Shown here: positions 38,416-45,300 of the stretch, piece by piece | Position numbering within the stretch: the stretch's first letter is position 1 | How the letters are laid out: each line of letters starts with the position of its first letter | NCBI GenBank assembly: GCA_023205875.1 | Contig: CP060758.1 | Location: 992,001-1,056,000 of the forward strand | Reading direction: 5' to 3' | From: Chloropicon primus | Lineage: Eukaryota | DNA: 64,000 nt | Notes under the pieces: generated by a model | Told to the model about the DNA's origin: nothing | What the model saw: the letters and a program-made list of their open reading frames with translations, nothing else | Databases searched by the model: none | Made by a program: the position numbers and the translations under genes

Positions 38416-39504
38416 TCAATCTTTGACGAACTTGTACATCGACACGCCCCACTGCTCGCCCCCGTCGAAGGCGAACATCTCTTCCACGGCGATGAAAAAG
38501 ACCCTCCATCTCATCCACCAAGCGTACGCCCCCCGCGGGCCATAAGCTTTCTCGCTCGCAAAGTCAGACAGGATCTCAGCCTTGTTCTCGTCCATCAACT
38601 CCAGCCAGTGCCTCGAAGTCCTCGCGTAGTGCTTCCCGTTCAGGTGCCAGGTCCTCTCGACCCTCAGGTGCTTCTGGAAGTGCAGCAGCAAACCGTGGGC
38701 TGGCATGGTCCCGCCCTCGAAGAAGTACTTGGTCATCCAGTCGCCCTCCCCCTGGACCTCGTAGTGGTACGTGTGCACAACGTGCGAGAAGATGTGGACG
38801 AAGAGCTTCCCCTGGGGCTTGAGCCACCTCGAGAGCTTCTCCAGAAGCAACTCGTAGTTCTTCATGTGCTCGAACATCTCGATCGAGAGGATACGATCGA
38901 AGCTCTCGCTGCCGAAGGAGTCGAACTCCGAGATGTCGCCCGTGTGGACCTGGAGGTTCCCAAGCCCCTCCTCCTTGGCTCTGCCCACAATGTAATTCCT
39001 CTGCGTAGTCGAGTTCGAGAGCGAGGTGATCGAGACCTTGGGGTACTTTTTCGCCAGGTAGAGGGACAGGGAGCCCCAACCGCACCCCAGGTCGAGGATC
39101 GACGCGCCCTCGCGGAGGTCCTCGAGGTCCGCGCGCTCGCAGTACAACTCCAGCATGTTTTCCTCCGCATCGGCGAGCGAGTCGCCCTCCTGCTTGTAGA
39201 GGCAGCAGCTGTACTTGAGGTGGGGACCGAGGACGCGGAGGAAGAACTCGGTCGGCACCTCGTAGTGCTGCTCGTTGGCGTCGCCCGTCTTGATCGCGAT
39301 CGGCATGCTCTTCAGCTGCTTCACCATCGAGTTCAGCTTCTCCTCGCGATCCTCCACCCCGCCTTGATCGCGTTCCGCGAGTGTCTCCCTCAGCAGCAAC
39401 CGGCTGAAGAACCTGACAACGAAATCCGGCACGTACCCTCGGTCCATCAGGGCGTACCCTGCCTTGAGAAAACCTTCCCACAACGAAGACGATACTACCA
39501 CCAT
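38416..39504 (-). CDS. SAM-dependent methyltransferase (cyclopropane fatty-acyl synthase / coclaurine N-methyltransferase-like)
   Basis: ANEQHYEVP, LKYSCCLY, ILDLGCGWGS, SIEMFEHMKNY, GGTMP. Confidence 0.9.
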   Translation of the reverse strand: MVVVSSSLWEGFLKAGYALMDRGYVPDFVVRFFSRLLLRETLAERDQGGVEDREEKLNSMVKQLKSMPIAIKTGDANEQHYEVPTEFFLRVLGPHLKYSCCLYKQEGDSLADAEENMLELYCERADLEDLREGASILDLGCGWGSLSLYLAKKYPKVSITSLSNSTTQRNYIVGRAKEEGLGNLQVHTGDISEFDSFGSESFDRILSIEMFEHMKNYELLLEKLSRWLKPQGKLFVHIFSHVVHTYHYEVQGEGDWMTKYFFEGGTMPAHGLLLHFQKHLRVERTWHLNGKHYARTSRHWLELMDENKAEILSDFASEKAYGPRGAYAWWMRWRVFFIAVEEMFAFDGGEQWGVSMYKFVKD

Positions 39505-39763
39505 CCTCCTCGCGGCGCGCACCCACAACCACGCTCGCACTCCACGAGGCTGCATCACGTGGCTCTCAATGAAGACCAGCAGCAGGTGCAGACCAGGATG
39601 TTGGAGGTTTTCCCCTGTTGGTGGGATTCCAGTGTATACCAGTTTGGTCACACCCAAAGGACAACCCACTAAGCGTTTTTCTCGTGTTCACTTGCTGGAC
39701 AAGGCAAATCTATAGTTACGAGGAGTTACGAGGAGGGCAGCGAGTGAAACCCTAATAACCGTC

Positions 39764-41854
39764 ATGGCGCGATCAGGGAAGCGCCGTAAGAAAAAGGAGA
39801 AGCAGGGGAGTGGCTCGACGAGTTCCACAAGGAGGTCGCACTCTGGCGAGAGTCATGCTCAGGGCGCTTCGAAGTCGGGGCAGGAGTCTCCGACGACGGA
39901 GCGGCCGTTACTTCGCTTCTGGAATCAGGCGTTGAAGTGGCTCTACGCGTTGTGCCTGCTTCCTACCGCGGACGACCCCGCCTCTGCGGGTGAGGGTTCG
40001 AGCACGCCTCGCAAGAAGCGGGGGGGGAAGCGGAAGGGGAAGCCGCCGGAGGCGGACGCCTCTGCGGGTGAGAGTTCGAGCTCGTCAGGCAAGCCTCGCA
40101 AGAAGCCTCGCAAGAAGGGCAAGAAGAAGAACAAGAAGAAGGGTAAGAAGAAGAAGAACAAGAGGGGGAAGAAAGCAGGGAAGCAGCCGGGTGGCTTGGC
40201 GGACGACAGCGTGAAGAACACGTGGTTCTCATCGATCAAGAGAGAACTTGAAGAGGTAAAGTGTCCGAAGACGGGATGGAGGTCGTGCTTGAACGTTCCA
40301 GAAGATTCTGTGGTATCCGTCGAGACATTGCAGCCGCCCGCCAAAAGGAAGAGGGAGCAGAAGCTGAAGACCTCCAAGCTATTGTCGGAGCGAACGGTGA
40401 TACGGACGAGGAAGCTTAGGATGCGCTTGAACCCTGAGCAGGCGAGAACACTTTGCAACTGGATGGGAGCTGCGCGTTTCACATACAACAAGTGTTTGGA
40501 GGCGGTCAAGAAGGAGGGTTTTCCGCTGGTTTGGACCGTCCTGCTGGACAGATTTGTGACGGCCAAACCGCGACGCCCTGAGGTCTTTGAGGGCCTGGAG
40601 AAAGAGCTGAAAGAAATCCAATGCTCTCCACGGCCATGGACAAAACAGGAGGCAGAGCTTTTCGCGGCCAGAGAGAAGAGACTCGAGAGCCAAATTGGAG
40701 GCAGAGCTTTTCGCCTCCAAGTGGCCAAGGACCGGGACTACGTTAGCGGGGCCTTTGTGAATCAGGAGCATCCTTGGCTGAAGGAAACCCCCTGTGCCAT
40801 CAGACAAGCTGCCGTGCGAAGTCTCATCAAGGCATGGGATTCGAACACCGCGAAGCAGGAAGCGATGAAGGAGCGCGGCGAGGAGAAGGGGCACCGCTTC
40901 GTTCTCAAGTATCGTCAACGTCAGCAACCGAGCTCTTGGACCATTGAAATTAATGCAAGAGACTTAAAGAACGTGGAGACGATCGAAAGACCGAGAACGA
41001 GGCACAAGGATGACACGAAGCACAAAAAACGACGCAAGTGGACCAAGCTGGAGGTGTTCAAGGAGAAGATGGCCGGCGGGCCCCTGTACTTGACGGAGGA
41101 GATCCCCGGGGGCAAGATCGAGGGTGCCGTGAAGATCACAAGAAATCGCCTTGGGCAGTTCCACATGCACATTCCCATCGCGACGCCATGGGATCGCCTG
41201 CCACCCCTGAAGCCTGAGAACAAGCGGAAGGTTGTCGCCCTGGATCCGGGAGTCAGGACCTTTCAGACGTCGTACTCGCCGCAAGAAGGCGTCGGGGAGT
41301 ATGCCAAGGGCGAGCGAGGCTTCGCGAGGCTGTTCAACCTCTGCCGGAGGATTGATGAGATCATTTCCGAGCGCAAAGACCCAAAGGTGAAGCTCCCTTA
41401 CCTCGACCGCCGCGACTTGAAGAGACAGCAATACGCCTGCATGGAGAAAATTCGAGGTCTGACTAACGAGCTTCACAAAAAGGTAGCCAACGATCTATGC
41501 AGGAGGTTCGACACAATCCTCCTCCCGGAGTTCAAGTCCCAAGACATGGTGAAGAAGAACAACAACGGGAGACGCCGAGTGATCAGGAAGAAGACGGCTC
41601 GCACGCTCTTGACGTTGAGGCACTATGTGTTCAGAACGTACTTGGCTTCCAAGGTGCTCTTGCACGGCAGTGAGCTGGCGATCGTGACGGAGGAGTACAC
41701 CTCCAAGACCTGTGGCAGGTGCGGACACATCAAGAAGAACCTGGGTGGAGCAGAGGTGTACAAGTGCCAGAAGTGTGGCTTCAAGTGCGGTCGGGATGTG
41801 AACGGGGCACGCAACGTCCTCCTGAAGCACTTGCGTCAACCAAAAAGTGTGTAA
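39764..41854 (+). CDS. Fz2: Fanzor (Fanzor2/IS607-TnpB-like) RNA-guided DNA endonuclease, 696 aa, intronless
   Basis: RTRKLRMRLNPEQ..L..WMGAARFTYNKCL (TnpB N-terminal), WLKETPCAIRQAAV, RuvC-I VALDPGVRTF (D494), ILLPEF (P588), alternative Glu in VTEEYTSKTC (E643/E644), Zn ribbon CGRC..CQKC, RuvC-III RDVNGARN (D678). Lys-rich N-terminal extension. Confidence 0.93.
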   Translation: MARSGKRRKKKEKQGSGSTSSTRRSHSGESHAQGASKSGQESPTTERPLLRFWNQALKWLYALCLLPTADDPASAGEGSSTPRKKRGGKRKGKPPEADASAGESSSSSGKPRKKPRKKGKKKNKKKGKKKKNKRGKKAGKQPGGLADDSVKNTWFSSIKRELEEVKCPKTGWRSCLNVPEDSVVSVETLQPPAKRKREQKLKTSKLLSERTVIRTRKLRMRLNPEQARTLCNWMGAARFTYNKCLEAVKKEGFPLVWTVLLDRFVTAKPRRPEVFEGLEKELKEIQCSPRPWTKQEAELFAAREKRLESQIGGRAFRLQVAKDRDYVSGAFVNQEHPWLKETPCAIRQAAVRSLIKAWDSNTAKQEAMKERGEEKGHRFVLKYRQRQQPSSWTIEINARDLKNVETIERPRTRHKDDTKHKKRRKWTKLEVFKEKMAGGPLYLTEEIPGGKIEGAVKITRNRLGQFHMHIPIATPWDRLPPLKPENKRKVVALDPGVRTFQTSYSPQEGVGEYAKGERGFARLFNLCRRIDEIISERKDPKVKLPYLDRRDLKRQQYACMEKIRGLTNELHKKVANDLCRRFDTILLPEFKSQDMVKKNNNGRRRVIRKKTARTLLTLRHYVFRTYLASKVLLHGSELAIVTEEYTSKTCGRCGHIKKNLGGAEVYKCQKCGFKCGRDVNGARNVLLKHLRQPKSV

Positions 41855-42060
41855 CTCCTCAGGGTTGCACATACGTTTGTTAGTACGGGCTGCCGTGCGT
41901 GGGCGGAAGTATTCGTTCATGTACGGTGGAATGGTCGTGGTAGGGCTGAATTACCCTGCCGAGAAACTTACAAACTCGGTGAAACGACCTTTGCAGAAAA
42001 CTAACAGGTAAGTAGGGGCCGGTTTCTCTCCGTGTTTCTCTCTTTCAGTGGAAAGGAGAA
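41847..42060 (+). ncRNA. Candidate Fanzor omegaRNA scaffold plus adjacent guide region (boundaries uncertain)
   Basis: Nested helices immediately 3' of the ORF: 41847-41872 hairpin, TGTTAGT/ACTAACA, GTACGG/CCGTGC, GGTCGT/ACGACC, GGTAGGG/CCCTGCC, CCGAG/CTCGG. This is the position expected for TnpB/Fanzor omegaRNAs. Confidence 0.6.
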
Positions 42061-42312
42061 CTTGCCTTTGTGCTTCCAGTATTGACTGTGATTTCCCTAC
42101 CGTCCTTTCGTGACTTTTCTGTGTGCTGTTTTTGATCTGATGTCTGAACACCATAACAAGACCTGACCTTGAAACGTGCCCGATGAGCCGCAGAAGGAGA
42201 TGAGAGTGAGAATGAGGAGTCCACGCAACACGCATTCCCGATGCCGGAGCCTCGGTATTATTAAAAAAGGGTTTATCTTTCTCAAGCAGGCTTTCATATT
42301 AATCTCGTTCCC

Positions 42313-45300
42313 TCACCTCTTCCACAGGTTCGGTGGCAGTCCGTAGTACACTGGGCTGCTTCCAGTCAATCGAGTCAGCTTGCAGGCCTTTCGAGCTCGC
42401 ATGATGCTGTTTGCGGTGAGCCTTCCCTCGTCGCCCCCCTCGCTGCTCAAGCAGTTCTCCAATACCTCCTTCGCAAACCTGTCGATGTCCTTGTCGGTCA
42501 CGTCCCACAAGTTTCCGACCGCGATGGGGCTCCCCGCAAGGAGGTAGGAGAGCAGGAACCCCCTTCCGTGACTCATGTGGTTCTTGCTCAGCCTCGCGCT
42601 GCTGCATCCCATGAGAAAGACCGGGGAGCACCTCTTCAGCTTTTCCATGGTGGACTTGGAGATGTACTGCTCGCACGTCCCGTGGCCAAAGTAGAGGAAG
42701 ATGTCCTTGAGCGACAGCATGTCGATCAGGGCGGAGTTGTCCGGGGCCTCGCCGGCCAGCCCAGCCCAGCCCTGCTGCTCGGCAAACCAGCTCTCAAAGC
42801 AAGTTTGGGTGCTCACAAGGTCGCCGCTGGGATTCAGCAGGAAGTACGCGTTGCTCCAGTTGAGGTCGGCCGCGGCTCCTGGCTCTGAGGAGGCCACCCT
42901 GGCGTGCGCTCGGTGGACGTAAGACATGGACGGCACCCTGTAAAACTCTTGGCCGCCCAGGCTGGGCAGCGATTCCCACGGGAAGGGCTGGCACTGGCCA
43001 TCCAGGGCGAGGAGGACGGGCCCAGGACTGAATTCTGCGAGAGGCGGCAGTCCCGAAGCTGCCGCCTTGATGCTCTCAGAGAGGGCCTTCAATTCCTTGT
43101 TGCCCACCGCCTGTGTTGTGGCCGAGGACGCGAGAACAGCCCTGAGCTGCACGCAGATCTGCACCGCCGTGTAGTGCCTGGCATGCAGCACCACAAGCCT
43201 CAGTAGGTCTGCAGTGCGGGGGGTGAGTTCCAAGAGCGAGCAAAGTGATCGCACTTTGCTGTCAAGGGATTCCAAGTTCTTGGTCGCCTCCCCCTGCAGA
43301 AAGACTGTGTACGGGCCCAAAATTTCCTCGTCCACCCTCTGCATGAGAGCTGAGAGCTCCTCGTCGAGGTCGATTCTCTTCTTCCACCACTTCTTCATTT
43401 GCTTCTTGTCGCTAAAGTCCCACGTGTCCTTCATGGAGGCATTGCTCCTGCAGAGGAGATCGCTGAGCTCGCCGAGGAACGTCCCTTCGCCAAGTCTGGA
43501 GCCCCCATCGAGAGGGATTTGGACAGCAACAGATCTTTCGTTCTGAAGCACTCGGGTGAGTGTCACGATGGGCTTGGGGGAGACGCGCAAAATATCTGAT
43601 GGGAGAGTCACGCTGATCGTGCACGCGGCAACTTCCTTTGGTATGATTCCAAAGAGCCTTGCGAAACTCTGAGAATTCTCCCTCAGCCCTGCCGCGTCGA
43701 CCCAACCAATGCCTTCGAATTGGCAAGGTGCCTGCTGGTCGCACTCATCGAGCTGCGTGTCCTTACCCTTGCAGAAGCCATCTCGAAGAAAATTTGTGCG
43801 AAGAATGCAGGTGCTTTGCAGGTGGTACGAAGTGCCGATCGAAGCGTGGAAAAACATCGAGGCCTGATTTGGCAGCTCAGGAGACAGGAGCAGACCCAGC
43901 AGCTGTGCAATCTTGTAGCTCAAAAGCGGAATGCCCTTGCTCTCCTTGTAGGCTTCCAGGAGTGTGTCCACAACGCCATCTCTCGCGTCTCTGTCCGTCT
44001 CGGCGCCGCCGGCGGGGTCTTCAAAGTCCAGATGGCGGACAGCAGAGTCCGTGCTCTCTTGGTGCTGACGAGGTAGAATCATTGAGCATGATGCCTCAGG
44101 CTCTTCGCTGTGTTCAAAAATCTTCAGGATCGCCGACAGGAACAAGTACCTGGATTTGTGCCCTGAGCCAGCCAGCTCTGCCAATTGCAGTAATTTCTGG
44201 CTAGCCTTCAGCAGTGTGCAAGCCTTTCCTTTCTGGCCATCCAAAATCAGTGCTTCTCCCATGAGAAGGTTTACCTCCAACGACAAGACTGAGAAGCGTG
44301 AGGCCAGTATTTTCCCTGCCACACTACTAGATTTCAACCCCACGAATCTTTCCCTCTGCACGGAAAGGGATTGCTGAGCTTGCTTTGCCTGGCACAGGGC
44401 AGATTCACATGTGCTTGCGCCCACGCTCAGAGATCCTTCACAGAGCTCTATCTCGATACCCACGAGCTGGGTGGGCAATTCCTCGAACCCGTTCTCCCTG
44501 AGCACGCCCAAACTTTTTCTTGCATTCCTCAAATGATCCTCTGCTTTGCTCGAGTTGCACCTCATGAAGTACGCTTGGCTCAATCTCAAAGATGCGATGC
44601 AAACGTAAAAGTGGTTGACGTCTGACCCAGCGAGATGGAGTATCTCGTGGTACGTCCTAGACGCGTCTTCTGGGAGGCCACACACGCATTGAAGGTCTCC
44701 GGTATAAAGCAAGCAGAGAACATGAAGATTCCTTGTCAGTGCCTTCTGGAACTCAGTTCCACCGCCCTTCGCTGTGCCAGCTTTAATCATTCCCTGCGTA
44801 AGGCGATTCGCTTCCGCTGCATGAGCCAGAGCTTTCCCGTGCTCCCCGCCCTCGTGGCACGCCGCCGCCAGAACGAGCTGCAGCAGAGTTCTCATCATGC
44901 GTCCATTCTCTTCGTTCCTGATCCAAGTGTCGATTCTGCGAGCTTCTTGCAAGACGTTGCCAGAGCCCACGAGCGAAAGCAGTTTGCCCATGAAAGTCTT
45001 TGTCGTAGGCTCCAACTCACTATGGACGCTCTGCAGCACAGAAAGGTCCTCAACGCAGACCAGCAGCTGCCTTGGGCTTACTTGCTTGGAGTAAAAGTTG
45101 ACCAGGGCGTGGCTCGTGAGCCTGCTTGCGTAGAGCAGAGCAATGCCTCCCTTTTCAAAATCGTGGTGGCTCTGGAAATGCAAGAACCACTCCTGAAGCA
45201 GGCAATTGCCTCGATCAATGAGCTCGGAGTGGCCCGAATAAGCTGCCTCTTGGCACAGGCGCGCCATTGCCTGCACGCAATGTTTTCCCAGGCAAATAAG

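Follow-up and report, generated by a model that had tools for sequence, protein, structure and literature searches.

In the window, by which we mean the whole 64-kb stretch of DNA analysed here, an intact Fanzor2 gene is followed by a predicted folded RNA scaffold and then by the right end of a transposon bearing the signals of a spliceosomal intron, and the best explanation, which we regard as rather probable, is that the spliceosome joins the scaffold to the host flank so that this flank serves as the guide. It is already known that the nuclease belongs to the Fanzor2* family, and an omegaRNA is hence to be expected; what is probably new here is a guide made by splicing within this known family. 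The coordinates of the features are collected in Table 1.

Table 1. Features of the Fanzor2* element and its putative guide RNA, in positions of the window.
Feature	Position	Strand	Basis or remark
Non-autonomous Fanzor2* transposon, ~2560 bp, TGTT...AACA	39599..42158	+	PacBio insertions and contig exits
Left end, degenerate TIR	39599..39613	+	aligns over 15 nt with the right end in reverse complement; boundary from 1 insertion
Fanzor2 ORF, 696 aa	39764..41854	+	intact; basic N-terminal arm
Predicted omegaRNA scaffold	41847..42007	+	z -4.68; 3' end homologous to IS607-linked relatives; 5' end approximate
5' hairpin across the stop codon	41847..41872	+	pair probability 0.90-1.0
Closing long-range helix, 5' arm	41879..41884	+	59/60 cells paired, 10 sequences
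18-bp G-U-rich hairpin, differs between subfamilies	41890..41929	+	pair probability 0.75-1.0; z -7.5
7-bp hairpin	41939..41960	+	41939-41945/41954-41960, pair probability 0.92-0.99
Closing helix, 3' arm, and terminal AG; scaffold end, likely exon end	42000..42007	+	homology
153-nt tail: transposon right arm, likely spliceosomal intron	42008..42160	+	signals, contig exits, insertions
Donor GTAAGT	42008..42013	+	AG/GTAAGT
Candidate branch CTGAT	42137..42141	+	~20 nt upstream of the acceptor
Right TIR, within the likely intron	42144..42158	+	PacBio insertions, TIR alignment
Acceptor AAG	42158..42160	+	end of the 153-nt tail
Predicted guide in the spliced RNA of this copy	42161..42180	+	in the host flank and antisense to the 3' UTR of separase; from the junction of another locus

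The ORF lies between two minus-strand genes, one for a methyltransferase and one for a separase. Its RuvC triad consists of D494 (in DPG), E643 and D678, with a zinc finger starting from C650; E643 lies six residues before C650, is conserved in the protein alignment as judged by eye, and aligns with the Glu of ApmFz2. Such a RuvC-I DPG with the Glu shifted beside the zinc finger and an Asp in RuvC-III is the arrangement of Fanzor2, as are the TnpB-like size and domains together with a basic N-terminal extension rich in Lys and Arg. In fact both PF12323 (OrfB HTH) and PF07282 (TnpB C-terminal domain) exceed the cut-off in the ORF, the NF040570 match of 98.1 bits falls slightly under its cut-off of 100, and the best PDB match is the mimivirus ApmFz2 (PDB 9B0L, E 1.5e-19). 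The nearest database relatives are Chloropicon primus 'IS605 transposases' with 88-97% identity, whose names point to this marine green alga as the host, and the protein belongs to a 46-member cluster. The available text of Yoon et al. 2023 (PMC10711439; preprint 10.1101/2023.08.09.552727) describes the C. primus family as Fanzor2* in a TIR/TSD element, and about 25 C. primus copies, annotated as IS605 transposases, are reported in the text of PMC6731263. No second copy of the element was found within the window, and protein and DNA scans for the Fanzor family gave no match in metagenome contigs or viral contigs; the 12 exact 19-mer matches in bacterial or viral contigs, the longest of which extends to at most 29 nt, were treated as chance. 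Moreover, three database gene models (P0005, P0146 and P0135) fuse the Fanzor, around 41830-41854, to other coding sequence, which in P0135 is that of a SET-domain protein; because these models are fusions, Fanzor copies can be seen to adjoin host genes.

Downstream of the protein, the original prediction had proposed a candidate omegaRNA at 41847-42110, and the motifs it quoted are all found at their positions or within 1 nt of them. The 264-nt tract does fold better than shuffled controls (z -3.86; 0/200 shuffles fold as well). The folded tract is real yet shorter than first claimed, covering 41847-42007; the signal is confined to 41847-42008 (z -4.68 for the sense strand, -1.08 for the antisense), and the tail folds in an ordinary way, with z -0.43 for 42008-42160 and -0.57 for 42008-42157. 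We hold with great confidence that 41847-42007 is the scaffold of a Fanzor2 guide RNA. According to the pair probabilities, taken from the fold of 41840-42008, the dominant structure has three hairpins (41847-41872, 41890-41929 and 41939-41960) and a closing long-range helix between 41877 and 42007. Among the helices proposed earlier, the hairpin spanning the TAA and GGTAGGG/CCCTGCC form at the probabilities of Table 1, and the long-range helix TGTTAGT/ACTAACA at 0.70-0.93. The proposed junction holds in part: GGTCGT/ACGACC reaches about 0.45, and CCGAG/CTCGG stays at 0.06-0.26 because it has 2 nt in common with the better helix 41939-41945/41954-41960. The hairpin GTACGG/CCGTGC (41883-41898) falls to probability 0.0, displaced by the previously missed 18-bp hairpin at 41890-41929, and the alternative pairing of CCCTACC with 41939-41945 attains at most 0.05. 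The hairpin CTTTC/GAAAG forms as described (0.74-0.96), but it sits in the tail, outside the scaffold. Such a structured RNA at the 3' end of the ORF, with its last bases modelled as paired back, is typical of Fanzor2, and the hairpin over the stop codon is likewise present in the related loci L081 and L082. The Rfam scan of 39400-42500 yielded no family, and its 2 sub-threshold matches were taken as chance.

A second subfamily, covered over 41723-41894 in runs X1, X2 and X4, diverges from the window at 41894 in 3/3 runs with cover. Two of the three listed changes in its 5' hairpin turn G-U into Watson-Crick pairs and one breaks a pair; in the X2 copy, one change in this hairpin removes the stop codon.

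The 3' end of the scaffold was approached through relatives. 160 related loci were fetched, 125 of which were distinct with enough downstream DNA. A 3' motif like that of window 41998-42007 is present in 9/125 loci, and a fully pairing upstream arm in 8 of these 9, compared with 2.3 motif loci and 0.2 (at most 2) with the arm in base shuffles; since the end motif was drawn from the same sequences, only the conditional pairing is informative. The set for covariation comprised the window, 8 motif loci and L084, which came from the protein ranking, namely 10 sequences cut down to the arms; the motif by which 8 of its 9 relatives were chosen was itself derived from them. In this set 59/60 cells of the 6-bp closing helix are paired, with two-sided change in 5/6 pairs and 11 two-sided changes altogether, so that covariation supports the long-range helix first proposed; 0/500 shuffles reach the observed level, and slid positions are 20-48% paired. 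An unanchored alignment did not line up the helix arms, and L083, rank three by protein score, is without the closing-helix architecture. In the four relatives with flank, a common end motif is followed directly by divergence, and the dinucleotide after the helix is CG or GG in the relatives and AG (42006-42007) in the window. A serine-recombinase-like ORF is located upstream in 7/9 relatives (7/10 loci checked). Judged by comparison of sequences, the covarying closing helix in related Fanzor2 loci puts the predicted scaffold end at 42007, which agrees with the earlier proposal of a scaffold that starts at the stop codon and ends near 42008.

The element itself extends further. Supplementary Data 8 of PMC6731263 lists three heterozygous PacBio insertions of it, with 2707, 2664 and 2664 bp, and each row was read over its first 400 letters, so from one end. 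Both reverse-oriented insertions (2/2) start at the equivalents of 42160/42159 and then run through all of 42008-42158 into the scaffold, and the forward insertion matches from 39599 onward. Moreover, the contigs of X1, X2 and X4 show several variants of the tail and 3 distinct exits between 42158 and 42161. The stretch 42008-42160 hence belongs to the element, and the mobile unit reaches about 42158. The original prediction had considered that, if the scaffold ends near 42008, the element ends there and TAAGTAGG... is a guide read from the flank; this does not survive, as the tract is carried in 2/2 DNA insertions to 42159/42160 and several copies stay alike in their contigs until 42158-42161. 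Eight loose-end motifs were tested and none is present in the window.

The terminal inverted repeats, as expected of Fanzor2*, are degenerate over 15 nt, and 1.1% of 5000 random window pieces score equally high in this alignment. No exact 5-nt TSD is seen at 39599/42158, AGACC opening the right flank and recurring at distances of 9 and 26 nt outside the left end; the legend in the Yoon preprint mentions a variable 5-nt TSD for the Fanzor2* element. A 26-nt TSD in this copy was set aside as its match is not significant (p 0.136 uncorrected), and the left ends 39614, 39676 and 39578 were considered and dropped given the insertion that starts at 39599. Rows 49 and 94 of the same Supplementary Data 8 (PMC6731263), the two reverse-oriented insertions, show, in the part read, 25-26 non-element letters beyond the right end, about one guide length, and these could be a long duplication, a scar of Fanzor cutting and deletion on the empty allele, or an artefact or shift of the caller. 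The serine recombinase TnpA that marks an IS607 element is lacking: 165 nt separate the left end from the Fanzor ORF, and the plus strand there has no ORF above 83 aa.

Near the left end, an inverted 8/9 copy of the scaffold end (42000-42008) is located at 39614-39622, 15 nt inside the end, and is perhaps an older inner terminal repeat; a similar upstream match to the scaffold end is found in L082. The end motif of the IS607-linked relatives, ACTAAGCG (39665-39675), also sits upstream of the ORF in a region that folds at chance, and a second omegaRNA-like fold at 39600-39680 was rejected (z -0.36). In L083, a related Fanzor2 locus with 51% identity, a near-perfect 83-bp TIR (L083:1335-1417 and L083:3311-3393) has TA at both outer edges; this element is Tc1/mariner-like, and its right TIR begins about 10 nt past the stop codon.

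As the segment between the scaffold and the host flank, the tail merits particular attention. It is unstructured and contains 38% T versus 20% in the window, and its 153 nt compare with a mean host intron of 152-154 bp as given in the texts of PMC6731263 and PMC12301720. It has the GT donor, branch candidate and AG acceptor of a U2 intron, and its removal appears in one matched contig junction; judged by eye, further GTAAGT sites in the window likewise begin stretches that resemble introns. The donor GTAAGT is kept in 4/4 copies read (the window, both reverse insertions and a deleted copy in X1), and the letters after it occur in 3 versions among these 4 copies, to which PacBio error may contribute. 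The splicing data are assembled transcript-like contigs rather than raw reads or small RNA. These contigs mostly leave the element at 42007, with 4 distinct exits at 42007-42009 in those of X2, X3 and X4, and in three runs the contig depth across the donor falls from 282 to 34, from 1888 to 105 and from 1280 to 170, an 8- to 18-fold drop in what is a weak measure. Furthermore, the same flank of about 30 letters stands after 42160 in X1 and directly after 42007 in X3, the difference between the two being an exact GT-AG removal. Among 6 right ends, an AG follows at once in 4, two bases later in 1 and nowhere nearby in 1. None of the contigs links 42007 to 42161 at this locus, and none shows a joint at the internal acceptors 42047 and 42078; run X5 gave 0 contigs, and X10 and X11 only short low-depth pieces. 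One contig of X4 quits the tail (42065-42124) at 42124 into sequence starting with AG, and this truncated tail again has a pyrimidine tract and AG. Altogether it is very likely that the 153-nt tail is removed by splicing.

The same exits might instead reflect the DNA, if many copies simply stop at 42007/42008, the tail being an insert of its own or lost from some copies, with no splicing at all. The matched junction is the only exit matched to its acceptor and comes from runs with different organism labels (X1 and X3) whose RNA status is guessed, and the inverted copy at 39614-39622 looks like an older inner TIR, as this account would have it. However, the tail is present in 2/2 DNA insertions read from the right end, no tail-only indel matching the searched tail motifs occurs in the 225-row table of PMC6731263, the skip obeys GT-AG exactly, and silent DNA is without cover in X3; both X1 and X3 lack cover over 39514-39727, as expected of RNA. 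We consider it quite improbable that the skip lies in the DNA.

It is a further matter whether the spliced form acts. Splicing may be incidental, serving to process read-through transcripts and no more, and any working omegaRNA may keep the tail and TIR and take its guide after 42160. In fact the available text of Yoon et al. (PMC10711439) proposes that the scaffolds of Fanzor1 and Fanzor2* include TIR and TSD, tail-retaining contigs occur in X1, X2 and X4, and ApmFz2 tolerates a 247-nt RNA, as stated in the text of PMC11832414. Against such a long scaffold, and against the earlier suggestion of one extending past 42100, shuffles fold as well as the tail does, the closing helix with its terminal dinucleotide at 42007 matches the ends of the relatives, and in ApmFz2 the guide directly follows the pseudoknot core (same text of PMC11832414). 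We judge the long scaffold unlikely. Alternatively, the unspliced RNA could be the active one, with a fixed guide encoded by the element from the GTAAGT at 42008, which is the guide of the original prediction shifted by one, and aimed at other copies or at nothing; the GTAAGT tract adjoins the scaffold in the DNA, and unspliced contigs exist. A guide tract inside the element, however, has no match to the empty site, it varies past position +6 with the donor hexamer invariant, and its 5' end has no second match of at least 9 nt in the window, so that we would give this fixed guide little chance. We favour, as reasonably likely, the spliced form as the working guide.

The mechanism proposed for this spliced guide would run as follows. 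The spliceosome would remove the transposon right end (42008-42160), joining scaffold position 42007 to flank position 42161, and trimming of the spliced 3' UTR would leave an omegaRNA of about 160 nt with a further 20 nt or so of guide. Fanzor would then cut the empty allele beside a TAM that, going by the terminal dinucleotide of the scaffold, probably ends in AG, and repair from the filled homolog would keep or restore the element. In such a scheme the intron would let a transposase-binding right end exist in the DNA and be left out of the RNA scaffold. The scaffold of ApmFz2 pairs its last bases with the 5' region, and the guide begins immediately behind them (PMC11832414, as far as its available text goes). 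In the DNA here, scaffold and flank are kept apart by about 150 nt of transposon end. Splicing would bring back their ancestral junction, and the restored junction would give a guide matching the empty allele, as restorative homing needs according to the text of a review (PMC13565253). The modelled effect on the fold gives mixed support: for guides of 15, 20, 25 and 40 nt, the probability of the closing helix is 0.98, 0.31, 0.39 and 0.98 in the spliced RNA and 0.01, 0.0, 0.0 and 0.54 in the unspliced RNA, with random flanks giving 0.31-0.45, and the in silico rescue of the helix by the spliced guide is thus not consistent. With regard to the flank itself, three runs that are identical to the window over 42183-42330 depart from it in 42161-42182, which includes the predicted guide, and the contigs on the separase side break off no more than a few bases from the element end.

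From an evolutionary point of view, we lean slightly towards a history in which a TIR transposon captured the Fanzor, the old IS607 end becoming the 5' splice site, the new end the intron, and the AG of the insertion site both acceptor and TAM. Once a eukaryotic transposon with fixed ends has captured a TnpB-family nuclease, the question arises how the nuclease can remain programmable. In the published view the transposon ends become part of the scaffold; this family, if our reading is true, splices the end out instead, which would be a eukaryote-specific solution and the reverse of the IStron conflict. A DNA-contiguous RNA would then carry the wrong guide, and the reconstitution of this Fanzor2 would have to change accordingly. 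If true, splicing efficiency and acceptor choice would control how active the nuclease is, and transcripts spliced to host exons further downstream could reprogramme it to target host genes; the same arrangement suggests splice-gated guide designs. In the published Fanzor and IStron work covered, which is incomplete and excludes the figures of Yoon et al., no spliceosomal intron between scaffold and guide was found; the introns described in the available texts lie inside Fanzor ORFs or are the group I introns of IStrons (PMC10690162, PMC10312701, PMC12633428, PMC11423790).

Compared with known systems, the window element is closest to the C. primus Fanzor2* of Yoon et al., being of the same family, a Fanzor-only element with a degenerate TIR; it differs in that the available text (PMC10711439) proposes TIR/TSD as scaffold part and contains neither RNA data for this family nor an intron, and in that the published 5-nt TSD is not found at this copy. 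The IS607-linked Fanzor2 ApmFz2 has in common with it the DPG, the shifted Glu, a scaffold starting from the ORF end and the long-range pairing to the last bases. Unlike the IS607-linked elements, however, that of the window is without a serine recombinase, its terminal dinucleotide is AG where theirs is GG or CG, and about 150 nt separate the end of its scaffold from the more distant end of the element, whereas in the ApmFz2 type the two coincide. Such an intron was seen in no relative outside the C. primus family; in L082, coding-like host sequence comes directly after the scaffold. With IStrons, as described in the available text of PMC10690162, the element would have in common a single transposon-end transcript with both splicing and guide-RNA roles. 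The likeness does not extend to the intron type, since the Rfam scan of 39400-42500 gave no group I intron. Introners consist of transposon DNA whose ends bring along or co-opt spliceosomal sites, in some cases with an AG from the target site. The contigs hold no joint across the entire element as an introner would produce; unlike in introners, what is removed here would be the terminal 153 nt and not the entire element, with the donor at 42008 lying inside the element.
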